A stretch of DNA of 64,000 bases from an uncultured Flavobacteriales bacterium (GCA_964455265.1 CAYVVI010000001.1:4593-68592), one strand, 5' to 3'; counted from the stretch's first letter, positions 9,820-39,199 are shown. The notes: a model not told the origin generated them from the sequence alone. A program made the numbers and translations.

Positions 9820-11658
9820 TTACCATATTAACAAAATATCATTCGCCAAAATTGTCGTTCTATCGCTAATTTTCTTTTCATCCCAAACTTTGTCTCCACT
9901 GTCATAAATATCCAATATATCAAAGCGCGTAATGCCTAAATCAGCATAATGTCTTATCCCTCTTTTTCTTCCTTCTCCTTCAATTTTTCTGCTGAACTCA
10001 TAATTTCTAAGAGATGTATTCAATGAACTATTTAGTAAAGTCATATTACCAATTGAGTAAATTTTTGAGTAGCGTTCTTTTTTTGCCAATTCCTTATCTG
10101 TAATAACATTTGATACGCTATCAACGATATCAATATTACTCCAATACTCCTCCCACTTTTGAGGCATAACGTGTTCAAGAGAGTAATTGTATTTAAGTTC
10201 TTTTACTGATTGTTTGCTGTCGTTTGCTCGCCTGTAAAGTTCTACCCAAAATAATAACAATGTAGCATTTTTATTGACAATTGCAGTCAAACCGTTTTTC
10301 ACTTCGTCATTGGTTTGTTCAGCGAGTTTAGTGTCAATCGATGAATTGTCTTTGATGAATTCTTTACACATCTTGTTGTAACTTTTCGTTTCAGACTTTG
10401 TAATCATTCGTCTTACAACTAATGTTTCAATTTTATGTAATTCCTCTAAAAGTTTTGTTTCGTTACTATCGTATTTGAAGAAAAGCGATAAAATGTATGG
10501 GTGAAAAGTTGATATTTCACACACACTTAGTATATGAAAAAGTCTTGCGTAATTATCCTGATAATTAAATAGTGTGCTACCATTAAATACCAAAATTTTC
10601 TCTCTGAAAAGTTTAGCATATTTTGAAATTTCTTCAATGAATTTTTTTAGGTCGTCTTTTGAAACTTTGGAAATATAAGTTTTGTAAAGGCTAGACAAGT
10701 CGGATAAGGTATGCTTATCTGGGTCGAAGAAACCCTTGATTACCGAGATTGAGTGTAGCAAAATTTCAATGTTATCACGCATTAACCTGCCTGTTGCTCT
10801 TGGTGTGTCCCAAAAGTTGATTGCATCTTCGTCTATTGAAAATACATCTTCCCACTTTTCATTGTATAGTGTTTCTACTTCATCTGCATTGTCAAACAAG
10901 TCTAGTGCTTTTTGAAACAAAGCATTTTTAATGATATCTGCACTACTAAGTCTTACCCCAGCACTATTAATTGTATCGAAAATCGCTTGTTCGTCTTCTT
11001 TTTCTGACAAGTCAATAATTACAAGGATTTTGTTTTCTTGGTCTAATAAACGATTAAATAATTCAAGTCTGCTGTCAATATTGATGTCTTTGAGCTTTTC
11101 AGAAAAATATTTGAAGCATTGTAATACTTTATTGTTTTTTGATAGAGTTTTTGTCGCAGGGTTCTCAATAATTACAGCATTGTATTCATCTTCTTCAATT
11201 TCGTTATTTATTATCCTCTGGAAATACTTTTTGTCAATTTTTGAATGTTCAATCTTCACAAAGTAATTTTTGTCGGTCTGGTTCTTTTTAAAAAACAAAT
11301 AATTTCTGAGAGAAGATTCGCAGTTTTTTTGAGTTTCCTCGTCAAAGCTATTGTAGATTGCTCTTAACAACACACTTAGGGTTGTAAGTCTTTGCTGTCC
11401 GTCAATTACTAAAACCTCCTTTGGTTTTCCTGATTGTTTTTCTTGTTGCTTGAGAATTAAAGAACCTAAGAAATGACTTTTTTCAAAGTCTAATAAGTCT
11501 GTCAAAATATCTTCCCAATTTGTTATGTCCCAAACATAGCCACGTTGAAAAAAAGGAATTCTTACAAGTCCTTCGTTACCTAAAAATGTCAATGACATTG
11601 CTTCTGCTTTCATAAATATTATATCTTTTAATTTAGTTAATTTGTAAAAATGTTTCAA
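9820..11658 (-). CDS. GmrSD-like type IV (modification-dependent) restriction endonuclease, DUF262 + DUF1524
   Basis: DUF262 signatures are IPFFQRGYVW and DGQQRLTT in the N-terminal half. The C-terminal half has a His-Me/HNH-like LEHVMPQ motif followed by NMTLL..SLN. The true start may be the internal MKAEAMS. Confidence 0.8.
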   Translation of the reverse strand: MKHFYKLTKLKDIIFMKAEAMSLTFLGNEGLVRIPFFQRGYVWDITNWEDILTDLLDFEKSHFLGSLILKQQEKQSGKPKEVLVIDGQQRLTTLSVLLRAIYNSFDEETQKNCESSLRNYLFFKKNQTDKNYFVKIEHSKIDKKYFQRIINNEIEEDEYNAVIIENPATKTLSKNNKVLQCFKYFSEKLKDINIDSRLELFNRLLDQENKILVIIDLSEKEDEQAIFDTINSAGVRLSSADIIKNALFQKALDLFDNADEVETLYNEKWEDVFSIDEDAINFWDTPRATGRLMRDNIEILLHSISVIKGFFDPDKHTLSDLSSLYKTYISKVSKDDLKKFIEEISKYAKLFREKILVFNGSTLFNYQDNYARLFHILSVCEISTFHPYILSLFFKYDSNETKLLEELHKIETLVVRRMITKSETKSYNKMCKEFIKDNSSIDTKLAEQTNDEVKNGLTAIVNKNATLLLFWVELYRRANDSKQSVKELKYNYSLEHVMPQKWEEYWSNIDIVDSVSNVITDKELAKKERYSKIYSIGNMTLLNSSLNTSLRNYEFSRKIEGEGRKRGIRHYADLGITRFDILDIYDSGDKVWDEKKISDRTTILANDILLIW

Positions 11659-11804: not shown

Positions 11805-12191
11805 TCATTTGTCAGTTTTGATTATAATATTTTCAGTCGACCCACTTAAATGAATTAATTTATTCAAATAGTCAACTTGACCTTTTATAGACTTTTGTTC
11901 AAGTGATTCCAAAATTTCTTGTCGTTCTTTCTCTTCTAACTTTGCTAATAGAACTTTTAAAGTTTCCTGAACCTTTACAAACTCTTCAAATGTCAATACT
12001 CGATTAGTATGAGCAATTTCGTTTCTAATTGTCCCAATACTTTTGATTGTTTCTAGTTGGTTTTTGTGTTCTTTTAGAAGTGTTTCAAAATTTTGTTCAG
12101 CCTTTTTCTTTCTGTAAAAAGTCAAAACAGACAGAATTACTCCAAGAAGTCCTGTCGCCATTGCTATGTATGTTAATATTTCTGATTTCAT
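11805..12191 (-). CDS. membrane-anchored mini-HEPN-like protein
   Basis: 128 aa with one N-terminal TM helix (ILTYIAMATGLLGVILSVLTF), then a helical domain carrying IRNEIAH, which matches the HEPN RNxxxH motif. It overlaps the upstream ORF by 4 nt. Confidence 0.45.
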   Translation of the reverse strand: MKSEILTYIAMATGLLGVILSVLTFYRKKKAEQNFETLLKEHKNQLETIKSIGTIRNEIAHTNRVLTFEEFVKVQETLKVLLAKLEEKERQEILESLEQKSIKGQVDYLNKLIHLSGSTENIIIKTDK

Positions 12192-13398: not shown

Positions 13399-13672
13399 AC
13401 AAGGTGTTTCATTTGCTTCTTCAATGGATTTTTGGATGTTGTTCTATTCCATATTATTTATTTACAGTTTTTATTCAATGTAGGCTAACTTGCAGCTTGG
13501 CGCTATAAAGTTGCGCATATACACCCAATTTCGGGTAGATTGGCGCTACTATTGTTCATTTTTGCTTTCTCATATCTACTTAATAACTTAACATTTATTT
13601 AATTGCATAAATGAAAATTAGCTTGAAGCAAAAAGGGATGTTCTATGATTAATAGAACATCCCTTAAAAGCT

Positions 13673-14180: not shown

Positions 14181-15938
14181 TTATGATATTAATGGAAAAA
14201 TAGCGCTAATAGTACTGCCATTATTAGGAAATGACTGAATGGTGAGCTTTCCATTAAAGCGTTTAACTCTAGAATTGATGCTTTGTAGACCTACGCCTTT
14301 TTTAACTTCATTCGGATTAAACCCAACACCATTGTCTTGGTAAATTACAGAAAAGTGTTTGCTGGTTTGAGTAACGGCTAAATGAATTGAGGATGCTGAA
14401 GAATACTTAATACCATTATTTAAAAGTTCTTGAACAACTCTATAAATGTTAAGTTGTAGGGAATCATTTAACTTACTTTGAATAGTATATACAAATGTAA
14501 TCTTTGATTTTTGTTTTGTAGATTGTGATGTGTTAACTAGTTCTTCAAGGGCTTTTTCTAAACCATAGGACTTAAGAACAGGAGAAAAAAGCTCGTGAGA
14601 AATTGACCTAGAACGTGCATTAGCATGAACCAGTAAATTGTCAACCCTACTATAAAGCTCTTCACTATTATTACTTAACAATACTGATTTTGAATGCGTA
14701 AATAGCATTCGCGCCATACCCAATGTTGCACCCAAATCATCATGTAACTCTTGAGAGATGCGTTCTCTTTCATTTTCTTGAGCATCAATGGTAGCAGATA
14801 TTACGGCTATGTCTTTTTCATTACGCGATTTGATTATTCTCCACAGAGCTATTCCAAGAAGGATGATAAGTATGATAAAACCTATTAGAAAATACGTTCT
14901 GATTGTTAAATTTTCTGCTTCTTCTTGCTTTTTAGATAGTTTCAAATCGGAGATTTGGCGGTCACGTTCAGATGCTTCATACTTCTCTTGCATTTCTGCT
15001 ATTGCCCTTGCTTTCTCCTTGTCATAAATTTGGTCTTTAACTTCTACAAATTGTTTGAGGTATTTTAGAGACAATGCGCTATTACCCGTTTTTTCATATG
15101 CCTCGCTAAGGTTAAAAAGTATTTTCTTTTTGTAATCGGGGTAGTTAAGCGTATCTGTATAGTGTAATGCTTGCCTAAAATAATTTATCGCTTCTTCAAA
15201 TTTGTTTGACGTTAATTTTAAGTAAGCCAAATTATTGAGATTTATGAGTATTCCTTCTTTGTCATTAATTTCTCTACTAATTGCCATAGATTTATTAATG
15301 TAATATTCTGAAGAATCTTTATTATTTAATCCTTGGTATGCACTAGCAATATTGCCAAGTACTATGCTTCTGCTAAGCTTATTTTTATTGGGAATAAATT
15401 TTAGGTTGTTTTTGTAATATCTTAATGCATCATCAAATTTTTGTGTTTCTATATATAATGAAGCTATGTCACCAGCAGATTTTGCTTTAAATAGGGAGTC
15501 TGTACTCAATAAACTTTTATTATAAACATCTACTAGTAGTTTTTCAGCTGAATCAAAGTTTCTTAATAAAACATGAGTTAACCCAAGTGTTGATTTAATC
15601 TTAGAATTTAAATCTTCGTTTACTGAATTCAATTTTAGAGCAGCTGACAAGTAAAATACTGTAGAATCAAATTGCGCAAGATTTTTATACCCAAACCCTA
15701 CTAAATATAACAAAGCAGACTTTTCTTCATTGCCATTAAGTAATTGAATCGTTTTTTTATAAAATGGGATGCCAAATTCAAAGTTCTTAGACTCATAAAG
15801 AGAGTCCCCGTTTTTAATTAAATATTGAATATCCCTATTCGTAATTTTATATAAAAAAGAAGCAGCTTTATCTTGCGCATTTGCTGATAAAACTGCTAAA
15901 AGAATTAAGAGAGTTAAATATGATTTGGCTATATTCAT
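14181..15938 (-). CDS. sensor histidine kinase (signal peptide + TPR repeats + TM + HisKA_3 + HATPase_c)
   Basis: Signal peptide, multiple TPR-like repeats, a TM segment (YFLIGFIILIILLGIALW), a HisKA_3 H-box (ERERISQELHDDLG), and a C-terminal ATPase with NGIKYS / DNGVGF / GVGL boxes. Confidence 0.85.
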   Translation of the reverse strand: MNIAKSYLTLLILLAVLSANAQDKAASFLYKITNRDIQYLIKNGDSLYESKNFEFGIPFYKKTIQLLNGNEEKSALLYLVGFGYKNLAQFDSTVFYLSAALKLNSVNEDLNSKIKSTLGLTHVLLRNFDSAEKLLVDVYNKSLLSTDSLFKAKSAGDIASLYIETQKFDDALRYYKNNLKFIPNKNKLSRSIVLGNIASAYQGLNNKDSSEYYINKSMAISREINDKEGILINLNNLAYLKLTSNKFEEAINYFRQALHYTDTLNYPDYKKKILFNLSEAYEKTGNSALSLKYLKQFVEVKDQIYDKEKARAIAEMQEKYEASERDRQISDLKLSKKQEEAENLTIRTYFLIGFIILIILLGIALWRIIKSRNEKDIAVISATIDAQENERERISQELHDDLGATLGMARMLFTHSKSVLLSNNSEELYSRVDNLLVHANARSRSISHELFSPVLKSYGLEKALEELVNTSQSTKQKSKITFVYTIQSKLNDSLQLNIYRVVQELLNNGIKYSSASSIHLAVTQTSKHFSVIYQDNGVGFNPNEVKKGVGLQSINSRVKRFNGKLTIQSFPNNGSTISAIFPLIS

Positions 15939-16477: not shown

Positions 16478-16837
16478 ATGAAATCTCTATATCTTACTAT
16501 TGTTAATTTTATATTAATACTTGCTATTGTTGTAGCATGTTCTGAAAATGAGTCTAAAAAAAAGAGTATAGCAAAGGAACTTTTATTAGAACAATGTGAG
16601 GTAATAATATCTAAGGTTGATGTAATGTATTTAAGCGACATGCCTGAAGATTCGTATGCTGCTTCTTGCGATTGTATTTCTGAAATTATTGCTGCCGATT
16701 TAGCAGAAAATTACTCATCCGAAAAAATAAATCGAATGAAAGAAATACCTTATGAACTAGTTCGAGAAATTGAATCTAAGTTAATTAAGCACAGAGATGA
16801 GATAGGAGATAATTGCCTTTCAAGAACTAGTCAATAA
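16478..16837 (+). CDS. small lipoprotein
   Basis: The internal ATG at 16478 gives MKSLYLTIVNFILILAIVVAC (signal peptide + lipobox Cys). The 3' end overlaps the convergent response regulator gene by 11 nt. Confidence 0.5.
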   Translation: MKSLYLTIVNFILILAIVVACSENESKKKSIAKELLLEQCEVIISKVDVMYLSDMPEDSYAASCDCISEIIAADLAENYSSEKINRMKEIPYELVREIESKLIKHRDEIGDNCLSRTSQ

Positions 16838-17450
16838 TACCCATTTTAAAAGCAATTCTAGCTAAGTCTGTAGTAGAAGTAACGCCCAATTTTAAGCGTA
16901 GATTTTTTTTGTGATAATCTACTGTTGCTATGTGAATGTTTAACCTATCAGCAATTTTTTTTCCTTTTACTCCTTCAGCTATAAGTTTTAAAATTTCTAA
17001 TTCTCTTTCGCTTAACTCTGTGTTTGGCTCAAATTTGGCCAGTGCCATCATCTGAGAAGATTCTCTACACAAATATTGCTTGCCATTAAGAACAGCACTA
17101 ATGGCTTTAAGTAAATCATTAACTCCTGTGCTTTTAATCAAATAACCATCTATACCATTTTTTAAACCATTGCTTACATACTCTTTATTTGAATACTGAG
17201 ACAGCAATATTACCTTTATATTAGGTCTTAATCTTTTCACCTCTTTAGCTAAATCCAAACCACTTTTTTCGGGAAGTTTAATGTCAGAAATCACCAAATC
17301 AATATTTCTGTAATTATTATTCAAATACTCTATGGCTGATTCTGCATTATTCTGCTTGGATATAACTAAATGGGTACTTTGATTTTCGATTAAGAATTTA
17401 AGCGAATCGGTAACAATTTCGTGGTCGTCAACTAAAACTATATTAGCCAT
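16827..17450 (-). CDS. LuxR/NarL-family response regulator (REC + LuxR HTH)
   Basis: The receiver domain has LVDDHEIV and LVISDIKLPEKSG (phospho-Asp context). The C-terminal HTH is LSERELEILKLIAEGVKGKKIADRLNIHIATVDYHKKNLRLKLGV. Confidence 0.9.
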   Translation of the reverse strand: MANIVLVDDHEIVTDSLKFLIENQSTHLVISKQNNAESAIEYLNNNYRNIDLVISDIKLPEKSGLDLAKEVKRLRPNIKVILLSQYSNKEYVSNGLKNGIDGYLIKSTGVNDLLKAISAVLNGKQYLCRESSQMMALAKFEPNTELSERELEILKLIAEGVKGKKIADRLNIHIATVDYHKKNLRLKLGVTSTTDLARIAFKMGIID

Positions 17451-17713: not shown

Positions 17714-18187
17714 TTAGTTTTTAAGAGAGGCATTTTTTTTATATAATGTTGGTAATAGCTTTCTTCCTACCATTAATTGATTGTAATAAATCCCTATTAT
17801 TACAATAATCATTTCTGGAGTTACATACTTCATTTCATAAAAAAAACTATGCCACCAGTCAAAATCATCTATAGATTCAGGGAAACGCCAAAGAAAGCCT
17901 ATTCTGATTATTTGATGAGCAAACATAAATAGAATTTGAAACACCAATAGTATTCGCCAATGATAATGTATTTTTTTTGTAATTTTTATAAGAAAGGGGC
18001 TAAATGGAGCAGTAATTAAACCATTAATAAGAAATAGATTACTTTCCAAATCAGCACCAGATGTGTAATATATATAGTCAAAAGAATAAATTATTTTATA
18101 AGATAAATGGCCAATTCCGATTACTATTAATTCATTTATGGCAAGGCATATTAAAATGAATTTTATCCAGTTATTAAATATTATCAT
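17714..18187 (-). CDS. hypothetical polytopic membrane protein (immunity-like position)
   Basis: 157 aa with about 4-5 TM helices. It overlaps the upstream papain-fold ORF by 4 nt. Confidence 0.5.
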   Translation of the reverse strand: MIIFNNWIKFILICLAINELIVIGIGHLSYKIIYSFDYIYYTSGADLESNLFLINGLITAPFSPFLIKITKKIHYHWRILLVFQILFMFAHQIIRIGFLWRFPESIDDFDWWHSFFYEMKYVTPEMIIVIIGIYYNQLMVGRKLLPTLYKKNASLKN

Positions 18188-18873
18188 AAGTAATGGAATG
18201 AATTTTTCTTATTTTCTAGTTCTCTATCTTCATTACCTGTAAATATATTATTTGAATCACATTTTTCTGTTCCGATATCGCTTTGAAATGGTCTTCCTGC
18301 TCCCCGAGAACAAAATCCCTTATCGAAAATTTTATACTCTATAATTTTAGTGACAATTTCTACGTGACGATCACCAAGCATAACCACAATATCCCCAATT
18401 TTAACCTCATCTATTGTTTTTCTTGTTTTAAATCCATTACCTGATTTAATTTGTCTTGGATCATAATAATGCCTATTACTAGCCATAATATTTTTGCCTG
18501 CATAAAATAGAGCATCACCCACAAAGATATTACAGGTCCATATACCTGTGCGGTCATTGCCCCAAAATACACTCCATAAATCACTTCTCCATTTTGAATA
18601 AGCCGTTTTTAATTTAGAAAGATCCGTGTTATTCATTATAACAGTAGTTGTATCTTCTTTAAAACCAGCTATAACAGCTAATGTCCTTCGTTGATTGGGA
18701 GCCAAACCCTTCCAATCATCCCAAGTGTTAAATTTCTTTGGCTTTGATGTGGCTGATTTTAGTTTTCCATTTGGAGAAAAGAACCAACCTTGTTTTTTCG
18801 TTTGAAAGTTCCAGTAAGAATCCATTATTGTCTTGTCACTACCAAGTTTTTTTGCTGCATCTGCTAAATTCAT
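18184..18873 (-). CDS. papain-fold (NlpC/P60 / CHAP-like) putative amidase/peptidase
   Basis: 229 aa with a candidate catalytic Cys in GIWTCNIFVGDALFYAG and a His in IGDIVVMLGDRHVEIV, the usual order and context of NlpC/P60-type hydrolases. No signal peptide. Tentative. Confidence 0.45.
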   Translation of the reverse strand: MNLADAAKKLGSDKTIMDSYWNFQTKKQGWFFSPNGKLKSATSKPKKFNTWDDWKGLAPNQRRTLAVIAGFKEDTTTVIMNNTDLSKLKTAYSKWRSDLWSVFWGNDRTGIWTCNIFVGDALFYAGKNIMASNRHYYDPRQIKSGNGFKTRKTIDEVKIGDIVVMLGDRHVEIVTKIIEYKIFDKGFCSRGAGRPFQSDIGTEKCDSNNIFTGNEDRELENKKNSFHYL

Positions 18874-18893
18874 ATCTAATAAGTTGTTTCCGC

Positions 18894-19133
18894 CTACTTT
18901 AATTTCTTATCGGGAAAATAATGTCTGTAAACCAAAAAAATGGTGCCGCCTAAAATGGTGTCAAAACAACCATAAATTATTCTTTCTGTATTGTTATTTG
19001 CTGTTATCAAAAAATATAGAACAATAAAAAATGCGACTAGTCCGGCTATGACTAAAAGTAGTTTGATGAACATAGTAAAAATAATTTCATATACCTGAAC
19101 TCTTTCTTTTGTCAATTCCTTATTATTACTCAT
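18894..19133 (-). CDS. small 2-TM membrane protein
   Basis: 79 aa with two hydrophobic helices. It overlaps the upstream ORF by 4 nt. Confidence 0.45.
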   Translation of the reverse strand: MSNNKELTKERVQVYEIIFTMFIKLLLVIAGLVAFFIVLYFLITANNNTERIIYGCFDTILGGTIFLVYRHYFPDKKLK

Positions 19134-19522
19134 ACGACTGCCTTATTAAGTTGATAAAATTCAATTTTTAAAATCTCGGACTTTTTAAACTCGTGTTTGC
19201 CGATCTCAAGCATTAAGCAAGTGTCGCATACAATTTTTTCAGGAATTTCTTTTTCTGAATTGTAATGATTTATGAGTTTACCACAGTCAGGACACTCAAC
19301 ACCAACTCTCCTTTTAAAGAGATTTTCTTTAACTGCCATTTCGCATAAAGTCTTAGCAGTTGGCGTATTTAGGTTGTAAAAACTCCGAATGTTTTCAACA
19401 TAAATCCTATCAGGATTAGTTGCACTAATAACGTCAAGTCGCTTATCTATAAAACGACCTAAGAAGGATTTATCAATTATTTGAAAGAATTTCTCTAACC
19501 ACATTTTTATTTTGATTTGCAT
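19130..19522 (-). CDS. hypothetical protein with zinc-ribbon (CPDCG...CDTC)
   Basis: 130-aa ORF; the probable start is the internal MWLEKF at 19504. It has a four-Cys ribbon. Confidence 0.45.
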   Translation of the reverse strand: MQIKIKMWLEKFFQIIDKSFLGRFIDKRLDVISATNPDRIYVENIRSFYNLNTPTAKTLCEMAVKENLFKRRVGVECPDCGKLINHYNSEKEIPEKIVCDTCLMLEIGKHEFKKSEILKIEFYQLNKAVV

Positions 19523-20333
19523 TTTTTGAAAATAAAGGTATGCTTATTTGTCCACTAGCAGGATCAACCGTAAAATGATCGGGAAGAATTTCATCATCCC
19601 TAAGATATTTAAAAATCATTTTCCTTAGAGGGGCATTTACTAGGTTTTGATAAACATCTGGATACTGGCTCTTTAGGGTATAATTTTCATCCATTGTTTC
19701 AGTTGTAGTTGACCTGTCTTTTTTCCATTTAGCATATTTGGAATCAATTGAGTCATTAGCCCAAAGTTGCTTTATACCCCTGTTTAGGTCACATATAGTT
19801 GGTCTTAAATGTGCAAAATGTGTACACACTTGTTCTATAATTTTCAACTCGTCAATTACCTTTTCAGCATTTATCACTTTTCTGTTTTGGTCAAAATAAT
19901 TGCTCATATTTTTTTCCAAAATAGTTGCATAGAATGTAAGGTGTGAGTTGGAAAGTACAATCTGAATTGGTTGGTGAAAACTTAAAGTTGTTTCTTCAAA
20001 CGGGTTTGTCAAAATTACTCTAAAATCTATAATTGGAGAAATTGTTATTAATGTAACCCCATTGAGATTTGTTTGGTGTACAATGTCAATAGGGAATAGA
20101 TTTAGATTTAGATTGTTAGGCGTTAGAGCTTGCTCAAGATTATAAATGTAAACATGTTGTTTTGTATGCTCTAAGTTGACATAGCAAAAGGAATCTATAA
20201 TTGCTTTTGCATTTCCGTTTAATATTTCGTTGTAGAGTTCGTCTGAAACCTTTGTAGAATTGAAATGTTCTTTCAGAACTTTCACAGGAAAAAGTCTAAG
20301 AAGTCTTTTTAAAATGTCACGTTGTGTATTCAT
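19473..20333 (-). CDS. hypothetical protein (first gene of a five-gene operon)
   Basis: 286-aa ORF. No motif was recognised. Confidence 0.5.
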   Translation of the reverse strand: MNTQRDILKRLLRLFPVKVLKEHFNSTKVSDELYNEILNGNAKAIIDSFCYVNLEHTKQHVYIYNLEQALTPNNLNLNLFPIDIVHQTNLNGVTLITISPIIDFRVILTNPFEETTLSFHQPIQIVLSNSHLTFYATILEKNMSNYFDQNRKVINAEKVIDELKIIEQVCTHFAHLRPTICDLNRGIKQLWANDSIDSKYAKWKKDRSTTTETMDENYTLKSQYPDVYQNLVNAPLRKMIFKYLRDDEILPDHFTVDPASGQISIPLFSKNANQNKNVVREILSNN

Positions 20334-20377
20334 TTGTTGTAGTTAACTTGTTCATTTATTTTACTATAAACTTGATC

Positions 20378-20411
20378 CTCTCAGAAGTTGTTGAGTAAAA
20401 ACTTCTGAGAG
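20378..20411 (-). terminator. hairpin at the end of the M15-patatin operon
   Basis: CTCTCAGAAGTT-N10-AACTTCTGAGAG, a perfect 12-bp stem about 115 nt downstream of the stop of 20525-20830(-). No strong T-run follows. Confidence 0.45.
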
Positions 20412-20524
20412 ACAACTTGTATTGGGTAGATTCTCACTATTAGTGTTCACTTTGATTTTCTCAAGTTTATCACAATAGTTTAATAGTGTTTCAATTATAG
20501 ATGTAGAAATTAATTCTACACGTT

Positions 20525-20830
20525 TCATTTCTTTTCTAAACTTTGATTCTCTATTTCCGATAAAATTTCCATTTTAATTTCATCCATATGTTTTTCAATC
20601 CATTTGTTGTGTAGCCGCTTAAAAATAAACCAAAACAGTAAAGAAATAGGGATACTTAAAGCGACAAACAGCAGAAATTCTATGTTCTCATCTTTATCGT
20701 TTTGTATTTTATACTTTAAGTAAAAAAGGAAGCCCAAAACGAATCCTAAACAAAGAAAAAAGATAAGCTCGAACGCTTTCTTAAAAAAGTAAAATACTCC
20801 TCTTATTCCTTTATTTACATACTTAATCAT
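20525..20830 (-). CDS. small 2-TM membrane protein
   Basis: 101 aa with two TM helices and a charged C-terminal helix. It lies 1 nt after the upstream ORF. Confidence 0.5.
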   Translation of the reverse strand: MIKYVNKGIRGVFYFFKKAFELIFFLCLGFVLGFLFYLKYKIQNDKDENIEFLLFVALSIPISLLFWFIFKRLHNKWIEKHMDEIKMEILSEIENQSLEKK

Positions 20831-20831
20831 C

Positions 20832-21512
20832 TTATTGCTCTCCTATTAAAACCATAAAAAAGAGAAGAAATAACACTGCAAAAAAGACTAGTGTTGAAAG
20901 TAAGTAGTATTTAAAAGATAGTATCCACGATTCTTTGTCGCTTAAATTCAAGATGTTTTTTATCACACTTTTGGTGCGCCAAATAATCCAAGCAACAGGA
21001 ACAGCAGAAAGCGACTCTGTATATTCTACATTGTTATGTATTAAGTAAAATGATAATAGTGTTAGTATGTGTGGAGGGATAAAGACATAGCATAAAGAAT
21101 ATAATGTGGTTTTCAGCTTTGTTTTACAAACTAATATATCTCCTTTACGGTGAATAAAAATTGCTATAAGTAAAGGGATGGATAAGTAATAAATGGCAGC
21201 ACTTAACAATCTAATTTCATCAGATGACTCTAAAAAATCTGTAATTCTTATAGAAGCATACGATAACCATTGAAATGGCGAGTATTCTAAGTAAGCAAAT
21301 GGAAAAACAACCAAAACAACAAACAATAGAAGAGGCGAAACATAATCGTCAAAGCGAATTTTTGTGTCTTTGTTCATCTCTTCCGAAACGTAGCCATAAA
21401 TCCACGATGGATTAAATGTGATTTTAACAAATGTTTTAGGAACGAAATAAATGGCTAAAAGAAGTTCATATAGAAACTCTTCTAGTGACAAGAGTAGTCT
21501 AAAAATGTTCAT
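20832..21512 (-). CDS. polytopic membrane protein
   Basis: 226 aa with about 6 TM helices. It lies 2 nt after the patatin gene. Confidence 0.55.
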   Translation of the reverse strand: MNIFRLLLSLEEFLYELLLAIYFVPKTFVKITFNPSWIYGYVSEEMNKDTKIRFDDYVSPLLLFVVLVVFPFAYLEYSPFQWLSYASIRITDFLESSDEIRLLSAAIYYLSIPLLIAIFIHRKGDILVCKTKLKTTLYSLCYVFIPPHILTLLSFYLIHNNVEYTESLSAVPVAWIIWRTKSVIKNILNLSDKESWILSFKYYLLSTLVFFAVLFLLFFMVLIGEQ

Positions 21513-21514
21513 AG

Positions 21515-22525
21515 CTATTGTATTATCAATTCTATAAATTTATCTAGTTGCTGACTATGATTTTGTGCTGTTTCAGTCCCCAGTGCTTTAAGCCCTAGAA
21601 GGTTTTTTTCAGAAGCATCATCCATTGATGAGTTTACATCACTTGGCATTTCGGTATTAACCCGTAAATATTGAGATGGTTTCTCAACGGCATCATACAT
21701 CTGCTTTAACTGATAGTCTACAGCATCAGCCACGCCAGACATCATTATATCAATAATTGGCTTAATCCACTGAGCAGCACCCCAATCTTTTGCTTTTTTG
21801 TATTCATAAGGGTCTCTTACAAAACCAGTTCCTATTGACAAAATAGCCATGTCTTTTGCCGTTACTTTAAACTTTGATACAGCTTCAGCATATGCGCATA
21901 GTGTTGGGTTATTGACAAAAACACCTCCATCAATTAATGGATATTGAACCCCAGTTTCAGACTTAATGTTTGAACATTCAAAATATGTAGGTGCAGCAGA
22001 AGTGGCTCTAGCAACATCTCTCACTAAATAGTCCCATGCTTTGTCTTTTTTAGCATCGTGTTGTGTGAAAAATTGACCTTTTCTTCTTTTAATATCATAT
22101 GCAGTAACAAGGCAGGGTTTAAGTAACTGACTTAATTTTGTTTCACCAAAATATGCCTTTACTGCTTTTTCAAAGTTGTCAGCAGGATATTTTTCATCAA
22201 ATATCCCCGCCCCACTTTTAATTTTATGTTTGAGAGGAATACTAAAAATTTCTCCCCCTTTTTCAAGATATAGATTAACAACTTCTTCTGCATTAAACTT
22301 AGGTCTGGTTTGATCGTTTAAGTGCGGACATAAATAAGCTATTGAAAGTATTCCTCCAGTGCTTGTTCCAGCAATTAAATCAAAATAATCAGCAATTCTT
22401 GCATTAGGATTTTTTGTCTTTTTTTGGATTTTCTTTTCTAAGGACACCAATACTTGCCCGGGTATTATTCCTCTTATACCACCCCCATCAATCGATAGAA
22501 TTCTAAATAGTTTTTTGTTTTCCAT
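21515..22525 (-). CDS. patatin-like phospholipase
   Basis: Has the oxyanion hole DGGGIRG, the nucleophile elbow GTSTGG (GxSxG), and the catalytic Asp in IDGGVFVNNP. Confidence 0.9.
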   Translation of the reverse strand: MENKKLFRILSIDGGGIRGIIPGQVLVSLEKKIQKKTKNPNARIADYFDLIAGTSTGGILSIAYLCPHLNDQTRPKFNAEEVVNLYLEKGGEIFSIPLKHKIKSGAGIFDEKYPADNFEKAVKAYFGETKLSQLLKPCLVTAYDIKRRKGQFFTQHDAKKDKAWDYLVRDVARATSAAPTYFECSNIKSETGVQYPLIDGGVFVNNPTLCAYAEAVSKFKVTAKDMAILSIGTGFVRDPYEYKKAKDWGAAQWIKPIIDIMMSGVADAVDYQLKQMYDAVEKPSQYLRVNTEMPSDVNSSMDDASEKNLLGLKALGTETAQNHSQQLDKFIELIIQ

Positions 22526-22550
22526 AGTTTATTAATTTTAATTAAATGTT

Positions 22551-23282
22551 CTAATTTCTATTAAATTGTTTCGCAGTTAAAACTTGATTTATGGACAAAG
22601 CGGGTGCATCGTCAGGAACGTCAATAGATGCACCAATATCAATAATATTAGCTTTGTAATTGGGATTTGGATTTTCGAAAGGTCTAATCGATCTGATTTG
22701 AATTCCTGCTCTTATTAAAGCAAGAGCAACTATTTTCACATCTTCAATATTCACATTTTTCCCATACCAAATACAGTCTGAAACATAATTTTCCATTAAG
22801 CTAGAAGCTGGCCTTTTTTCATACCTGTATCCAAGTTCATGTAATGAGAATAATAGTTTTTCATCGTCTATTGACTTAACATAATACCTTACTGTTATAT
22901 TAGAATTAGGGATATGACTTTTAGACAATTTTTGAATTTGTTTATGGGCTTTTATGCTATTGTTAATGATAATATCTTTGTTAGAAAGCTGCATGATACT
23001 GTCTATCGGTAAACCAAACGTACTCATCAATTCACCTTCAAGCTCTTGCTTTTTTGTAATAAGCGATTTAAATTCATTTTCTTTTTGTTCAACCTGTTGA
23101 TTGACTACAGAAAGTTGCTCTTTTACTTTTGAAAGCTCATTAAGCTTAGTGTTAAGTTCGTGACCAAAGTACAATAGGCAAACGACAACAATGCCTATTG
23201 GTATAATAGCATACAAAAACGCTGAGTTTCTTTGTTTTCTTTGGATATCAGTAATTACTTTGTCATATTCGGATTGTTCCAT
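22551..23282 (-). CDS. type-II membrane protein with coiled coil and C-terminal globular domain
   Basis: 243 aa with an N-terminal TM (AFLYAIIPIGIVVVCLLYF), a coiled-coil stretch of about 60 aa, and an unknown domain of about 130 aa. Confidence 0.5.
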   Translation of the reverse strand: MEQSEYDKVITDIQRKQRNSAFLYAIIPIGIVVVCLLYFGHELNTKLNELSKVKEQLSVVNQQVEQKENEFKSLITKKQELEGELMSTFGLPIDSIMQLSNKDIIINNSIKAHKQIQKLSKSHIPNSNITVRYYVKSIDDEKLLFSLHELGYRYEKRPASSLMENYVSDCIWYGKNVNIEDVKIVALALIRAGIQIRSIRPFENPNPNYKANIIDIGASIDVPDDAPALSINQVLTAKQFNRN

Positions 23283-23285
23283 ATC

Positions 23286-23636
23286 TCAAAATGATTTTAA
23301 AATTATTTCGTCAATCTTCTGCTTGATGATTATTTTGTCTTCATCCGAAGGCATTGGTGGCCCACAATATCGTCCTCTAAAAAGATGTAATGCCTCAATT
23401 CTATTATTAATATTATAAATCTCTCTTAAGGGCCACGCAACACCTATAGAAGTTAAAGCAATTCCACCTAGAGTAGTTAATGTTTTAGCGATTTCTTCAT
23501 CGGTTAGCAATAGAATTCCTATTGAAATAGCTCCCACTCCTAGTGTTGAAGCTACTATAGCCCATATCTTAGCTCTTTGAATCATTCTCTTATGAAAAAT
23601 CAAAGCATCATCGCAGTTTTTAACAATAATATCCAT
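23286..23636 (-). CDS. small 2-TM protein (holin-like or SLATT-like topology)
   Basis: 116 aa with two TM helices (IWAIVASTLGVGAISIGILLL and LGGIALTSIGVAWPL). It lies 16 nt downstream of the M15 peptidase gene. Confidence 0.5.
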   Translation of the reverse strand: MDIIVKNCDDALIFHKRMIQRAKIWAIVASTLGVGAISIGILLLTDEEIAKTLTTLGGIALTSIGVAWPLREIYNINNRIEALHLFRGRYCGPPMPSDEDKIIIKQKIDEIILKSF

Positions 23637-23652
23637 AGAGGGGTATAGTTTA

Positions 23653-24420
23653 TTATAACAGTTTGGCTAATTCAAAGTGCATTCCGTCTTTTCTGGAAAA
23701 ATGACCCCCCCAATAAAATCCCAGCTTGTTTGCAATAGAAACAAGTTCTCTTAAGCTTCCTTTTTCTCCTACAAGCGCGGGGTTTACCCCCAAAGCATTC
23801 CATTTGGCGTTTAAATCTATGGCAATGCCATAAGCATGTGAGCTTAGAGTTTTAGAACTTCCTCGAATTAATCTTGCATTAAGTGCCCCATCGTAGGTTA
23901 ATATTTTATCCGTTAATCCTGCTTTTTTCCAATCTGTAAAAAGTTGTTGAAATTGGGGAGCTGCTTTTTTGTGAACAGAAATCCTATTAGTGTTATAAGG
24001 AGGAAGTTTTTTAATCTGTGGCAGTTCTATAGTAATGATGTTATCTTTTCTAAAACCATTAGTTATGTTAACACTACTTCCATTTGCAAGAACGTTAAAT
24101 TCAATTTTACCAAATATGCTTTGCATTTGTGGGGCTGTGAGTGGTTTAAAGTTTGGTGCTAGTGGCCAATTTGAACCTAGTTTTTCTTTGTCTTTCGGGT
24201 CTTCTACCAAGAAAAAACCTAACTGCATGGCCTTGGCATAGCTTTGATTACCCACTACACCATCTACAAATAGTTTGTGTTTTTTTTGAAAATCTTTAGT
24301 GGCGAGTTCTGTTCTATTTCCAAAATCCCCATCAGCAATAAGCTTATAGCCCTGACCAATCAGGAAGTATTGCCAATTTATTACTTGTTTACCTTTGTCT
24401 CCTTTACGTAGTGCTTTCAT
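23653..24420 (-). CDS. peptidoglycan-binding (PG_binding_1) + M15 (VanY-like) D-Ala-D-Ala peptidase
   Basis: The PG_binding_1 repeat is GDKGKQVINWQYFL...DGDFGNRTELATKDFQKKHKLFVDGVVG. The M15 metal ligands are SSHAYGIAIDLN and WGGHF..DGMHFE. There is no signal peptide. The start is set at ATG 24420 because the track start (GTG 24456) lies inside the promoter box. Confidence 0.8.
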   Translation of the reverse strand: MKALRKGDKGKQVINWQYFLIGQGYKLIADGDFGNRTELATKDFQKKHKLFVDGVVGNQSYAKAMQLGFFLVEDPKDKEKLGSNWPLAPNFKPLTAPQMQSIFGKIEFNVLANGSSVNITNGFRKDNIITIELPQIKKLPPYNTNRISVHKKAAPQFQQLFTDWKKAGLTDKILTYDGALNARLIRGSSKTLSSHAYGIAIDLNAKWNALGVNPALVGEKGSLRELVSIANKLGFYWGGHFSRKDGMHFELAKLL

Positions 24421-24458
24421 AGTTTTATGAAGTTTGATTTCACAAATAAAAAACACGC

Positions 24459-24478
24459 CACTGTCATTTTATGACCGT
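24459..24478 (-). promoter_or_regulatory. conserved palindromic promoter-proximal motif (copy 1), sense ACGGTCATAAAATGACAGTG
   Basis: One of five near-identical 20-bp copies in the window. On the sense strand it is followed by GCGTGTTTTTTATTTG (a TTTG-type -7-like box) and then the M15 peptidase gene. Confidence 0.7.
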
Positions 24479-24743
24479 AAAGAAAATTGTTAAAAAGTTT
24501 TTTTAGCACTCAGAATTTTTTGGTATCAAAAAATTAATCGATACTACTAAAATAGTACCTGAGAATTTACTAGGTGAGCTTTTTAGTTATAGCTAATGCT
24601 TGGTTTTATATGATAAAATTCTACTTTCATTCAATTCTTTTACCATTTTTCCCCGAATTACAAGAAACCATATTTATCAATATTACAAAAAGTGAATGAA
24701 TACTTAGCTTTTAGAGGCAGAATAGATTAAAAAGTGTTTAACT

Positions 24744-24881
24744 TTAGATAAAATGTAAAGAAGTTAGTTGTAATTTTTTTACTTGCTTCATACCCCAAGG
24801 GTCATCATCATAGCCATCATCGAACCAACCTTTTGGGCTGCGTTCTTCTTGTCTTTTTGGCCTATGTAGGCGTTCGCGCAT
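24744..24881 (-). pseudogene. leader-only mini-ORF (45 aa: MRERLHRPKRQEERSPKGWFDDGYDDDPWGMKQVKKLQLTSLHFI)
   Basis: Translated by hand. The first 13 residues and their DNA match the shared cargo leader (MRERLHRPxRQEE), and similarity then ends. It is either a remnant of a cargo gene or a very small cargo. Confidence 0.4.
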
Positions 24882-26570: not shown

Positions 26571-26590
26571 CACTGTCATTTTATGACCGT
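26571..26590 (-). promoter_or_regulatory. conserved palindromic promoter-proximal motif (copy 2)
   Basis: The sense strand reads ACGGTCATAAAATGACAGTG, then GGATTGTTTTTATTTGCAAAAACCACTAAATTTACTCTACC ATG of 25348-26529. Confidence 0.7.
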
Positions 26591-36424: not shown

Positions 36425-37744
36425 ATGGCAACATTAAAAACACCGGGAGTTTATGTACAAGAGATCACAAAATTCCCGCCTTCGGTAGCGCAGGTAGAAA
36501 CTGCAATACCAGCATTTATGGGTTATACAGAAAATGCTGTAACAGAACCCAAACGCATTAAATCAATGGTAGAGTTTGAGCAAATTTTTGGAGGTGCTGC
36601 TCCTGCAGGGTTATCACTTTCAATAACTTTGACAGACGGAGTATTAACCAGTGCTACACCAACCCAAGACGATTCTTTTTATCTTTATTATTCCTTACAG
36701 TTGTATTTTGCAAATGGAGGCGGTCCTTGTTATGTAGTTTCTACAGGCACTTACTCATCTACTCCTGCTGCTGCTGACTTTACAGGTGCTATTGCTAAAC
36801 TTAAAAAGGAAGATGAGCCAACCTTGCTTGTACCTGTTGATGCGGTTAATTTAGCTACTTATTATGATATTGCCATAGCATGTCTTAACCAGTGTAACAA
36901 TTTACAAGATCGATTTACGATTATTGATGTTGTTGATTCTGGTATTATTGCTACTGATTCAAGTAGTTTTAGAACAGCGATTGGCATTAATCACCTTAAA
37001 TATGGTGCCGCTTATTATCCATACTTAAACACAAGTCTAACATATCCAGATTCTTCCATCGAATTAAGTGGAGCTATATCAGGTGTTTTGGAAGATTTAA
37101 TTAATGATGGTAGTGTAAATGGAATTTTAGCAGATTTGAGAGCCGCTATTTCAAAGGTAGTTATTACCCTCCCTCCAAGTGCTGCTATTGCTGGTATTTA
37201 TGCATCGGTAGATAGAGACAGAGGAGTTTGGAAAGCCCCTGCAAACGTAAGTTTAAATGCAGTAATAGCTCCTACCATTAAAATAGATGATGCAGACCAA
37301 GAATTATTGAATGTTGATACAACTGCAGGTAAATCAATCAATGCTATTCGTGCTTTTATAGGCAAAGGCACATTGGTATGGGGTTCTAGAACACTAGCAG
37401 GCAATGACAACGAGTGGAGATATGTTCCTGTAAGAAGATTGTTCATTACAGTAGAAGAATCTGTAAAGAAATCTACTTCATGGGCAGTATTCGAACCAAA
37501 CGATGCCAACACATGGGTAAGAATAAAAGCACAAATAGAAAACTACCTTACTGGATTATGGAAAAATGGAGCATTAGCTGGTGCAACACCAGATGAAGCA
37601 TTTTTTGTAGCCGTAGGATTAGGAAGTACCATGACGGCTGATGATATACTAAACGGCTATATGAATATAGAAATAGGTATGGCAGCAGTTCGTCCAGCAG
37701 AATTTATCGTACTTAAATTCTCGCATAAATTACAAACATCATAA
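36425..37744 (+). CDS. contractile sheath protein, paralog 1 (Afp2-4 / phage tail sheath family)
   Basis: The N-terminus is LKTPGVYVQEI..PPS....TAIPAFMGYTE. The C-terminal sheath domain is INAIRAFIGKGTLVWGSRTL...EWRYVPVRRL. Confidence 0.9.
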   Translation: MATLKTPGVYVQEITKFPPSVAQVETAIPAFMGYTENAVTEPKRIKSMVEFEQIFGGAAPAGLSLSITLTDGVLTSATPTQDDSFYLYYSLQLYFANGGGPCYVVSTGTYSSTPAAADFTGAIAKLKKEDEPTLLVPVDAVNLATYYDIAIACLNQCNNLQDRFTIIDVVDSGIIATDSSSFRTAIGINHLKYGAAYYPYLNTSLTYPDSSIELSGAISGVLEDLINDGSVNGILADLRAAISKVVITLPPSAAIAGIYASVDRDRGVWKAPANVSLNAVIAPTIKIDDADQELLNVDTTAGKSINAIRAFIGKGTLVWGSRTLAGNDNEWRYVPVRRLFITVEESVKKSTSWAVFEPNDANTWVRIKAQIENYLTGLWKNGALAGATPDEAFFVAVGLGSTMTADDILNGYMNIEIGMAAVRPAEFIVLKFSHKLQTS

Positions 37745-37762: not shown

Positions 37763-39199
37763 ATGGCATTAGCATTTAAAACACCAGGAGTTTATGTACA
37801 AGAGATAGCAAAGCTACCTCCTTCAATTGCCGAAGTTGCAACAGCGGTACCTGTTTTTATAGGATATACAGAAAAAGCAGTTGGGGCAAATGGAGGAAGC
37901 ATATCTCTAGTGCCTACAAAAATAAGTTCCTTGTTGGAGTATGAACAACTGTTTGGAGGATCGAATGCTTCAATAACTGTTGAGTTAGATAGCGAAAATG
38001 TTATTTCAGATATTTCGGTTTCTGATGGATCATTAAAGTATGTAATGTATTATAGTGTACAGATGTACTTTAAAAATGGTGGAGCACCATGCTATATAGT
38101 TTCTGTTTCTGAATATAAAGATTCTGCTCCTTATGTTAAAAAGAATGAACTAAAGACGGGACTGGAAAGTATATTTAAGGAAGACGAAATTACATTAATT
38201 GTGTTTCCAGACATTACATGTATATCTGGTACCACCACCACATGTGTTGCAAATATGTGTGAGGTTTATAAAGAAGCATTAATTCAATGCAATAAACTTC
38301 AGGATAGATTTGTCATCATGGATGTAATTCATTCTCTTTCGTCTAATTCAATTGCAGATTTTAGAACCAACATCGGAACCCAACATTTAAAGTATGGTGC
38401 AGCGTATTATCCTCGCTTAGTTAGTACACTAAAGTATCAGTATACTGATGATAAAGTAGTCTTTAGTCAATCGTCAGGGTCAACTGATATTAATACTAAA
38501 ACACTTGCCGAAGTATTAGAAGCCATTGAAGACGGCTTAGGAACGGCTTACGAACCATTCGTAACGAATGAGTTTGTAACCATCATTCGAGACAGCATAC
38601 TCGATCAAACGGGTAATTTAATGCTGCCTACGTCTCCTATTATGGCTGGTATTTATGCATCGGTAGATAGAGATAGAGGAGTTTGGAAGGCACCTGCTAA
38701 TGTGAGTATCTCAAATGTTATTGGTCCTGAAATAAAACTTACAGACGAGGACCAAGAGTTGCTTAATGTTGATACAACTGCAGGTAAATCAATCAATGCT
38801 ATTCGTGCTTTTATAGGCAAAGGCACATTGGTATGGGGTTCTAGAACACTAGCAGGCAATGACAACGAGTGGAGATATGTTCCTGTAAGAAGATTGTTCA
38901 TTACAGTAGAAGAATCTGTAAAGAAATCTACTTCATGGGCAGTATTCGAACCAAACGATGCCAACACATGGGTAAGAATAAAAGCACAAATAGAAAACTA
39001 CCTTACTGGATTATGGAAAAATGGAGCATTAGCTGGTGCAACACCAGATGAAGCATTTTTTGTAGCCGTAGGATTAGGAAGTACCATGACGGCTGATGAT
39101 ATACTAAACGGCTATATGAATATAGAAATAGGTATGGCAGCAGTTCGTCCAGCAGAATTTATCGTACTTAAATTCTCGCATAAATTACAAACATCATAA
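37763..39199 (+). CDS. contractile sheath protein, paralog 2
   Basis: Same signatures as paralog 1. The last 145 codons or so are identical at DNA level to paralog 1. Confidence 0.9.
   Translation: MALAFKTPGVYVQEIAKLPPSIAEVATAVPVFIGYTEKAVGANGGSISLVPTKISSLLEYEQLFGGSNASITVELDSENVISDISVSDGSLKYVMYYSVQMYFKNGGAPCYIVSVSEYKDSAPYVKKNELKTGLESIFKEDEITLIVFPDITCISGTTTTCVANMCEVYKEALIQCNKLQDRFVIMDVIHSLSSNSIADFRTNIGTQHLKYGAAYYPRLVSTLKYQYTDDKVVFSQSSGSTDINTKTLAEVLEAIEDGLGTAYEPFVTNEFVTIIRDSILDQTGNLMLPTSPIMAGIYASVDRDRGVWKAPANVSISNVIGPEIKLTDEDQELLNVDTTAGKSINAIRAFIGKGTLVWGSRTLAGNDNEWRYVPVRRLFITVEESVKKSTSWAVFEPNDANTWVRIKAQIENYLTGLWKNGALAGATPDEAFFVAVGLGSTMTADDILNGYMNIEIGMAAVRPAEFIVLKFSHKLQTS

Follow-up and report, generated by a model that had tools for sequence, protein, structure and literature searches.

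The 64,000-nucleotide (nt) stretch of DNA analysed here, referred to as the window, comes from an uncultured Flavobacteriales bacterium (GCA_964455265.1, CAYVVI010000001.1:4593-68592) and has a G+C content of about 33%. It encodes a complete contractile injection system (CIS), recognised from Pvc16_N, sheath, gp19 tube, CIS_tube, VgrG, gp25 and AAA proteins. The structural operon runs on the plus strand from 34734 and comprises a Pvc16_N cap, two sheath paralogues, two gp19-type tubes, CIS_tube, VgrG, gp25 and very large proteins of baseplate size. A divergent arm on the minus strand carries an AAA ATPase, an Endonuclea_NS_2 nuclease, a TPR protein, a PoNi immunity protein and a 1071-residue protein. 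The far end of this arm is occupied by an operon of six genes (20525-24420, minus strand), the subject of this work, for which a first-pass annotation had proposed a role in lysis of the producer and release of the CIS particles.

The six open reading frames (ORFs) are tightly packed on the minus strand, and the gaps of 16, 3, 25, 2 and 1 nt given for them earlier were re-found exactly. Gene 1 (23653-24420) encodes a peptidase of 255 amino acids (aa) counted from an ATG, with a start identical to that of the public record. It is followed by gene 2 (g2, 23286-23636), encoding a 116-aa membrane protein with a charged C-terminal tail, and gene 3 (g3, 22551-23282), encoding a 243-aa type-II membrane protein. 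Gene 4 (21515-22525) encodes a 336-aa patatin-like lipid acyl hydrolase/phospholipase without signal peptide, gene 5 (g5, 20832-21512) a 226-aa polytopic membrane protein with 5-6 transmembrane (TM) segments, and gene 6 (g6, 20525-20830) a 101-aa membrane protein with two. Hydropathy analysis found zero hydrophobic segments in the peptidase and in the patatin. In g2 it found one strong TM segment (residues 26-44) and a weaker second one (about 53-68), so the two-TM topology first assigned to this protein is plausible but not firm. The type-II topology with a coiled coil described for g3 agrees with its single N-terminal TM segment (21-39) and with a long helix in its structural model, and the two TM segments of g6 were recovered; five of the six segments attributed to g5 are clear and the sixth is possible. 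The module ends at a stem-loop on the minus strand (20378-20411, -18.7 kcal/mol, z = -3.4). This hairpin is real, although its stem has 13 bp rather than 12 bp. It has no T-run, and the 54-aa ORF around it (20364-20528) shows little conservation and is probably non-coding, not a gene. A scan for consensus sigma-70 promoters and terminators gave counts close to the shuffled expectation.

Gene 1 has an N-terminal PG_binding_1 domain (E = 2.1e-9) and a C-terminal Peptidase_M15_4 domain (E = 2.9e-16), in which the LAS zinc-peptidase signature is intact (H195-x6-D202, D245-x-x-H248). The absence of a signal peptide and of a cargo leader, already noted for this PG_binding_1 plus M15 protein, was upheld by Pfam, hydropathy and leader comparison. 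The protein matches PHROG endolysin families and the peptidoglycan-binding domains of solved endolysins, e.g. phiKZ gp144, and among GenBank phages it has partial matches to annotated endolysins and carboxypeptidases. The predicted product is a cytoplasmic endolysin-type peptidoglycan peptidase without export signal, and the operon therefore contains the signal-less peptidoglycan hydrolase that is a trait of lysis cassettes. A metagenome scan returned 80 full-length relatives with 41-61% identity (related loci are numbered L001 onwards). Relatives with 42-46% identity are found in phage-like regions (L064, L097, L098, L107, L108 and L113), where the gene lies between genes for TM proteins of about 110 aa and a second endolysin-type gene; also present in these regions are genes for an XRE-family transcriptional regulator and for replication initiation. 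In L037, a peptidase relative adjoins a TPR-S sensor protein.

The operon is tied to the CIS by its promoter. The palindrome GTCATnnnATGAC occurs in five exact copies in the window (24463, 26575, 28047, 34560 and 34704); when one mismatch is allowed there are seven matches against 1.5 expected, a number reached in 0 of 100 shuffles. Oriented flanks are common to all five copies, consisting of ACAnTTTTCnTTnACGGTCATAAAATGACnGTG, a short spacer and an invariant TTTG, and each copy is aimed at its downstream gene. In the block in front of the operon (24443-24495, minus strand), the palindrome ACGGTCATAAAATGACAGTG has its core at 24463-24475, ACAATTTTC is conserved upstream, and a TTTG box lies at 24443-24446, about 23 nt ahead of the peptidase ATG. 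The other copies are found 5' of a 393-aa leader-bearing cargo gene (26575-26587, minus strand), of the CIS AAA ATPase gene (26613-27920; motif at 28047-28059, minus strand), of the 1071-aa leader-bearing cargo gene that forms an operon with PoNi immunity (34560-34572, minus strand), and of the CIS structural operon (34704-34716, plus strand). Bacteroidota -7 promoter elements contain TTTG, and the invariant TTTG of the motif blocks is compatible with them. The placement of the operon behind a palindromic motif copy, reported before, is thus correct, and the block is the same oriented one that precedes the structural operon, the ATPase gene and two cargo operons. Since this promoter block is common to five units, the operon belongs, at the level of sequence, to the CIS regulon. 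The predicted co-regulation makes the link to the CIS a regulatory one, strong within the window; the motif was found in 0 of the 115 related loci examined.

A TPR-HisKA_3 histidine kinase (14181-15938, minus strand) and a GerE/LuxR response regulator (16827-17450, minus strand) are encoded 3-6 kb beyond the operon, and similar pairs of kinase and GerE-type regulator are present near patatin relatives in L004, L016 and L039. GerE regulators are reported to be enriched adjoining loci of extracellular contractile injection systems (eCIS) (PMC8213781). We infer that the kinase and the regulator of the window are candidates for the factor that acts on the palindrome.

An N-terminal leader of about 100 aa (MRERLHRPIRQEEPA...FPNG[V/I]FGD...VDTPKQ) is common to six proteins of the locus. 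By leader comparison, four of them are encoded on the plus strand (gene starts 51522, 54148, 55350 and 61104) and two on the minus strand (26529 and about 34550). The leader is highly conserved and the C-terminal domains differ, and it is probably the cargo-loading signal of this CIS. One of the six proteins has a T4-lysozyme-like motif after the leader, judged by eye and without profile confirmation. Neither the peptidase nor the patatin has the leader, and both begin directly with catalytic or binding domains. Because a wall-degrading cargo, the lysozyme-like protein, does carry the leader, the two enzymes are not cargo by the rule of this locus. Downstream of each leader gene are small ORFs that look like immunity genes, with either a signal peptide or TM segments. 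A PoNi immunity protein (30607-31344, minus strand) is encoded downstream of the 1071-aa leader protein (31335-34550, minus strand), and the Endonuclea_NS_2 nuclease lies at 28627-29265 on the minus strand; together with the lysozyme-like leader protein they suggest an antibacterial CIS with self-protection. There is a seventh leader copy from 63215, broken by stop codons. A 45-aa ORF with the leader only (24744-24881, minus strand; MRERLHRPKRQEE...) separates the promoter in front of the peptidase operon from an effector-immunity unit, and this remnant suggests that effector cassettes have been turned over at the junction.

The patatin (Pfam Patatin, E = 6.2e-24) is canonical, as first described, with the motifs G14GGxRG, G53-T-S55-T-G and D199GG and a Ser55/Asp199 dyad. 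Its relatives number in the thousands. It matches PADLOC models of effectors of the cyclic-oligonucleotide-based antiphage signalling system (CBASS; 2e-74) and passes the NCBIfam CBASS_lipase model barely (201.6 bits against a cut-off of 200). Against solved structures, potato patatin Pat17 gave 155 bits and CapV-type chains 94-102 bits. Six of the eight GenBank phage matches are to Wolbachia phage WO, with 33-35% identity over about 90% of the length, and the other two are to unannotated uncultured metagenomic phages. In phage WO the patatin gene directly follows a P2-like contractile-tail module, where a small TM/coiled-coil protein is also encoded. This phage patatin has been proposed, as yet untested, as the core of a 'patatin-based lytic cassette' (PMC9203015). 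A scan of viral contigs with the single patatin sequence found nothing, a scan with the patatin alignment found 27 loci (28-44% identity), and a sheath scan found two short contigs only. In genomes, 28 patatin loci were compared (30-66% identity, 22 of them 48-66%); their neighbours are not conserved and there is no conserved partner gene. One of the loci, from Mangrovivirga halotolerans (L027, 7135-15654; 48% identity), has eCIS_core (DUF4157) toxin genes on both sides, one of them also with a Het-C domain; CIS structural genes are absent there within 10 kb. The only family match of g5 is a weak one to Yip1 (E = 0.0085). Genes g5 and g6 travel with the patatin in a block of DNA, 94% identical, that is common to L114.

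For g2, HMMER against 1.84 billion representatives found three small homologues only. In every recovered context a gene for a protein of 240-250 aa lies within a few bases downstream of the g2 homologue, and where DNA was available g3 aligned over its full length with these partners (241 aa in L145, E = 1e-18; 250 aa in L148, E = 2e-15). The relatives of g3 were reached solely through g2 neighbours, and a word-indexed search with g3 returned no homologue. Resemblance of g2 to known families is limited to sub-threshold similarity with putative SLATT-like two-TM domains, namely CyanoTRADDas_TM (E = 3e-4, 21.2 bits against a cut-off of 24.3) and, weakly, PADLOC RTasSLATT (E = 0.008). A single-sequence AlphaFold model of g3 has a continuous helix at residues 3-89 (pLDDT >80 to about residue 80) and a second helix at 93-123; mean pLDDT is 64 and the C-terminal domain is below 70. 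The model fits a TM segment and coiled coil up to about residue 123; the C-terminal part, a putative alpha/beta domain, is modelled with low confidence.

The nearest relatives of the operon are from Bacteroidota. A near-identical one (L001, the same as L114, from a Logan assembly) has 99% amino-acid identity in the patatin, 95% in g5, 96% in g6 and 87% in the peptidase, and a single unrelated 529-aa gene replaces g2 and g3. Two blocks of DNA are shared with L114. One of them (window 22655-20396, 94%) extends from just upstream of the patatin into the hairpin, inside which the homology stops, at 20396; the other (window 24428-23652, 81%) corresponds to the peptidase. On these comparisons the operon is a mosaic of three separately mobile modules: the peptidase, g2-g3 and patatin-g5-g6. 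The peptidase of L114 starts 3 nt past the last gene of a co-directional operon for giant proteins of 1146 (DUF6603), 944, 2036 and 601 aa, preceded by genes of 120, 225 and 622 aa. Both the CIS genes and the palindromic motif are absent from L114, and an ABC-3C-type defence trio (CTD9, MC5, AAA_23) lies directly downstream.

The four-gene giant core recurs in L115 and L150, with 39-48% identity between L114 and L115, so that three clusters of about 1150 (DUF6603), about 1000, 1650-2100 and about 610 aa can be listed (L114, 3701-17928; L115, 3231-18199; L150, 3182-16817). The 2036-aa protein has >250 homologues. The accessory tail of the cluster is variable and contains peptidoglycan hydrolases, membrane proteins and patatin. 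In L115, genes for a membrane protein of a family named here C13, for a Glyco_hydro_46 enzyme and for a DUF5675 protein come after the core. L039 has a remnant of the 601-aa gene ahead of an array that encodes, in order, the peptidase, proteins of 273 and 86 aa, a Peptidase_C1 protein, a 90-aa protein and a 440-aa protein resembling hydrolases; next come a patatin with 33% identity and more genes. A second and unrelated giant pair, of about 2010 and about 1700 aa, is found in L002 (1-9217), L148 (1-7987) and L038, with 44% identity between loci. The tail of this pair in L002/L036 is the peptidase (60%) and, immediately after it, the patatin (72%), without membrane genes; the tail in L147-L149 contains g2-like, g3-like, C13-like, PHP-like, Peptidase_S8 and Peptidase_C1 genes. 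Signal peptides are absent from all the giant proteins, which gave no significant Pfam match beyond DUF6603, no NCBIfam match and no significant sequence match in the PDB; for DUF6603 no literature match was found. By these gene orders the parts of the window operon are, in other Bacteroidota, attached to the 3' ends of other operons for giant signal-less proteins.

The peptidase adjoins three patatin lineages: the type of the window, L001 and L002, the 33%-identical one of L039, and a 599-aa patatin encoded directly upstream of the peptidase relative in L051/L052. About 6 of the 80 peptidase loci have a patatin gene nearby, and about 45 of the 80 loci are longer than 5 kb. As a rough estimate, and not a computed statistic, this pairing appears to lie well above what would be expected for a family present at one or two copies per genome. 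The C13 membrane family (N-terminus MFxSxxLDVxIGLxFIxLLYSLL) occurs beside peptidoglycan hydrolases of the M15 or GH46 type (L044, 5162-7600; L050, 3520-5163; L079; L115, 18438-20039; L148, 9138-10400). It corresponds to no Pfam family and is a possible holin-like partner.

Our preferred explanation, held tentatively and with slightly less than even confidence, is that the operon is an envelope-demolition module for lysis of the producer and release, patatin-based and without spanins, that has been recruited into the CIS regulon. This reading is drawn from the CIS promoter, the endolysin-type enzyme without export signal, the absent leader and the membrane partners, and also from the modules appended to operons of giant signal-less proteins, the recurrence of peptidase with patatin and the parallel in phage WO. 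No other lysis genes were recognised among the approximately 40 ORFs of the window that were scanned. Release would begin when a factor acting at the palindrome, with the GerE-type regulator and its TPR histidine kinase as candidate, turns the regulon on. Particles and leader-tagged cargo would then build up in the cytoplasm, and at the same time the g2-g3 pair would open or weaken the inner membrane in the manner of a holin, g2 being maybe a SLATT-like pore former. The peptidase could in this way reach the peptidoglycan and cut its cross-links. The patatin would hydrolyse phospholipids of the inner membrane and afterwards, from the periplasm, of the outer membrane, taking over the job of spanins, while g5 and g6 may recruit, time or restrain it. 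Finally the cell would burst and the particles would be freed. The roles given here to g2-g3, to g5-g6 and to the patatin as a replacement for spanins are our proposals.

Several observations weigh against this explanation. With CIS genes sought within 10 kb of each relative, none were found beside the patatin relatives (0 of 28 genome loci) or the peptidase relatives (0 of 80 metagenome loci), and the only hints of a CIS are eCIS_core toxin genes, found in L027 as neighbours of the patatin and in L145 at a distance of 8 kb from g2-g3. The earlier expectation that the cassette travels with CIS loci fails here: the parts are mostly away from them, an outcome that the first-pass annotation had itself named in advance as refuting. 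Synteny of the peptidase operon with CIS loci is likewise not conserved in either set, and the nearest relative, in L114, follows a non-CIS giant operon, which speaks against a CIS-dedicated function. Of the dedicated, co-regulated release module first proposed, the co-regulation stands, through the promoter in common with the CIS, but the module is not a conserved and dedicated CIS component; for this reason we regard the first-pass interpretation as partly supported. Elsewhere the g2-g3 pairs precede Peptidase_C1 (papain-like), DUF900 (alpha/beta hydrolase) and Peptidase_S8 genes, and there is no endolysin in the operons of the recovered relatives of g2-g3. Neither g2 nor g3 matched any PHROG family, and so no holin or spanin family; alignments of both found nothing in the viral contigs of IMG/VR; and on the operon strand no ORF with a lipobox, as needed for an o-spanin, exists between 20300 and 24500. 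Although g3 has an i-spanin-like topology, it was rejected as a spanin because it has no lipoprotein partner. The labels 'holin' and 'i-spanin' thus agree with topology, size and the charged tail of g2, but not with the evidence from families, viral contigs and partners, and g2-g3 is a conserved pair but not a recognisable holin-spanin pair. The patatin family is commonly a stand-alone gene with unconserved and often housekeeping-looking neighbours, so expression of the patatin need not be lethal. Conflict-system genes are found near the operon or its relatives (ABC-3C in L114, caspase-like in L004, AAA_23 in L151, GmrSD/HEPN in the window). Moreover, this CIS may stay anchored to the cell rather than be released.

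Because conflict-system genes are such frequent neighbours, we count among the main rivals a module of programmed suicide, for abortive infection or conflict, in which the patatin, a SLATT-like pore former and the peptidoglycan peptidase kill the infected or stressed cell, the link with the CIS being positional or a regulatory piggy-back. It would account for the CBASS matches of the patatin in PADLOC and NCBIfam and for the weak SLATT and TRADD-N-associated two-TM matches of g2, as well as for the caspase-like gene (L004), the AAA_23 and RelA_SpoT genes (L151) and the ABC-3C trio (L114) beside patatin relatives, the TPR-S sensor beside a peptidase relative (L037), and GmrSD and HEPN near the operon in the window. 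However, no cyclase, NTPase or other sensor was detected in the operon or in the scanned flanking ORFs (Pfam, PADLOC), and no nucleotidyltransferase or cyclase is among the best 25 of the 125 families neighbouring patatin relatives. The promoter belongs to the CIS regulon, and the module of L114 is packed translationally behind a giant operon and not behind defence genes. The CapV/CBASS form of this idea, offered earlier as an alternative, is weak. The patatin does share with CapV the fold and the catalytic dyad, with strong PADLOC and borderline NCBIfam matches, but no CD-NTase was found in the operon or among the scanned neighbours, there is no conserved partner in the 28 genomes, and the protein is closer to the constitutively active potato patatin than to CapV. 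We consider programmed suicide improbable.

The operon might otherwise encode part of a cocktail of signal-less degradative exo-enzymes that digest their targets after being co-released with the particles, or after export via g2-g3 in the manner of a type 10 secretion system (T10SS); the enzymes would then be a payload of lysis and not its cause. Related loci do show the modules of peptidase, g2-g3 and patatin interspersed with genes for papain-like and S8 proteases and for DUF900 and other alpha/beta hydrolases, none of which is needed for lysis, and the cargo of the CIS is antibacterial (lysozyme-like, nuclease and PoNi-protected toxin). Tc toxins provide a precedent, being released by a lysis cassette that in Yersinia entomophaga frees other factors together with the toxin (PMC10847046, PMC10847048). 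Yet the window operon consists only of two envelope-directed enzymes and membrane proteins, the peptidase is still built like endolysins that act from within, and some agent is needed to open the cell when the approximately 40 ORFs scanned hold no other lysis gene. The probability that we assign to this cocktail is low.

A further alternative, already raised in outline by the first reading of the locus, takes the peptidase and the patatin as leaderless CIS effectors in the manner of Tae/Tle pairs, with g2-g3 as immunity against the former and g5-g6 against the latter. Peptidoglycan hydrolases and phospholipases are classic antibacterial effectors, membrane-protein genes follow each of the enzyme genes, and the operon occupies the effector-rich arm of the CIS, directly after an effector-immunity unit and the leader-only remnant. 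What argues against it is the leader, which each of the six recognisable cargo proteins has and which both enzymes lack. The downstream membrane genes, moreover, do not co-vary with the enzymes as cognate immunity genes would: the gene after the 87%-identical peptidase of L001 encodes the unrelated 529-aa protein, in L002 the two enzymes have no adjacent membrane genes, and g2-g3 is found elsewhere without the peptidase. This makes the effector explanation very unlikely. Local remodelling of the envelope, by which a cell-anchored CIS similar to subtype iv of the type VI secretion system (T6SS-iv) would assemble or fire through the wall of its producer, is hardly probable: co-regulation with the CIS, an encoded LAS-type endopeptidase (compare TagX, the L,D-endopeptidase of the Acinetobacter T6SS) and immunity genes suggestive of contact with sister cells are in its favour, but the peptidase has neither membrane anchor nor signal, a patatin lipase has no obvious remodelling role, the eCIS hallmarks Pvc16_N cap and AAA ATPase are present, and the same modules follow non-CIS giant operons.

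Lysis cassettes of tailocins, and one upstream of the antifeeding prophage (Afp), are known (PMC10598620, PMC12961389), and reviews note that a lysis cassette is missing from some loci (PMC10598620). No lysis gene is named in the AlgoCIS paper, which deals with an eCIS of Bacteroidota. The cassettes of R-type tailocins and of Serratia Afp resemble the window operon as read here in neighbourhood, in co-regulation with the particle locus, in the order of a cytoplasmic endolysin-type hydrolase and then small membrane proteins, and in the expected outcome, lysis of the producer. In contrast to them, the window operon has no recognisable holin family and no spanin pair, adds the patatin and two further membrane proteins, and is built of parts that are not phage-derived as a block and that also serve non-CIS giant operons elsewhere.

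In the T10SS, the signal-less LAS endopeptidase ChiX depends on a holin (PMC4259817, PMC5778951). A signal-less LAS endopeptidase with a membrane partner outside a prophage is the trait of this system, and the predicted enzyme class and the context of the window operon fit it. Like ChiWXYZ of Serratia and the cassette of Yersinia entomophaga, the operon would be a chromosomal, non-prophage module with a LAS-family zinc endopeptidase dependent on a membrane partner, and the use would be the same, the export of very large or signal-less proteins. On the other hand, g2 has no sequence relation to ChiW or HolA, there are no equivalents of Rz/Rz1, a patatin is present and the host phylum differs, the nearest relatives being Bacteroidota. 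The cassette of phage WO has the homologous patatin beside a contractile-tail module and a proposed lysis of the host by attack on its membranes. It differs in having ankyrin and PLD genes instead of an endolysin, to which the window operon adds a peptidoglycan peptidase; Wolbachia lacks detectable peptidoglycan, which explains a cassette without endolysin. The Tae/Tle pairs of T6SS and eCIS have the same enzyme activities and a comparable position in an effector-rich CIS arm, and are set apart by the cargo leader and the co-variation of membrane genes discussed above. The kind of feature, a lysis cassette beside a phage-tail-like particle, is accordingly a known one; new are its patatin-based and spanin-free composition, its undescribed membrane partners and the modules shared with two uncharacterised giant-protein systems.

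A wider generalisation, which we consider doubtful, is that Bacteroidota possess a modular toolkit for envelope demolition, not of phage type, made up of a LAS endolysin, g2-g3, C13, a patatin similar to Pat17 and that of WO with g5-g6, and optional proteases or lipases, and placed at the 3' end or in the regulon of giant cytoplasmic machines that are released through sacrificial lysis. The machines of this kind appearing here may be the CIS of the window, the DUF6603 four-gene cluster (about 1150, about 1000, 1650-2100 and about 610 aa) and the giant pair of about 2010 and about 1700 aa. If such a toolkit exists, it would mark the two giant-protein families, uncharacterised so far, as new nanomachines or toxin complexes that are released, and patatin would be established as a substitute for spanin or holin in programmed lysis.

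To our knowledge, the exit of systems of the Afp and Photorhabdus virulence cassette (PVC) type from their producer is poorly known outside tailocins and Serratia Afp. Through its shared promoter, its endolysin-type peptidase and its patatin, the operon offers a testable genetic handle on this question. If the release explanation is true, it would be the first release module combining a patatin with an endolysin, would give an experimental footing to the idea of patatin lysis in phage WO and could allow control over the yield of engineered injection particles; the two widespread giant signal-less families may then be undiscovered released machines.

Directly past the hairpin there are four co-directional minus-strand genes (19473-20333, 19130-19522, 18184-18873 and 17714-18187) for proteins of 286, 130, 229 and 157 aa, none with a significant match in the libraries scanned for each. 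Between the first two of these genes there is an overlap of 50 nt. Two CxxC pairs are present in the 130-aa protein, for which PHROG gave a weak, Lar-like match (E = 0.0033). The four genes (17714-20333) are not common to L114. On the far side of the operon, 8-10 kb away, are a GmrSD restriction enzyme (9820-11658, minus strand) and a HEPN-like gene (11805-12191, minus strand), on account of which this flank looks like a defence island. In the structural operon, the two sheath paralogues (36425-37744 and 37763-39199, plus strand) have a stretch of 300 nt that is 94% identical, the rest of the genes being more diverged, and this stretch may reflect gene conversion. Finally, a short repeat, GAGAAAnCAAAAATGnACAATAnTnGCGCCAATCTACC, is found near the ends of modules, at 13534-13578 in the window and 22509-22553 in L114, and in a degenerate form at 20430-20470 in the window.

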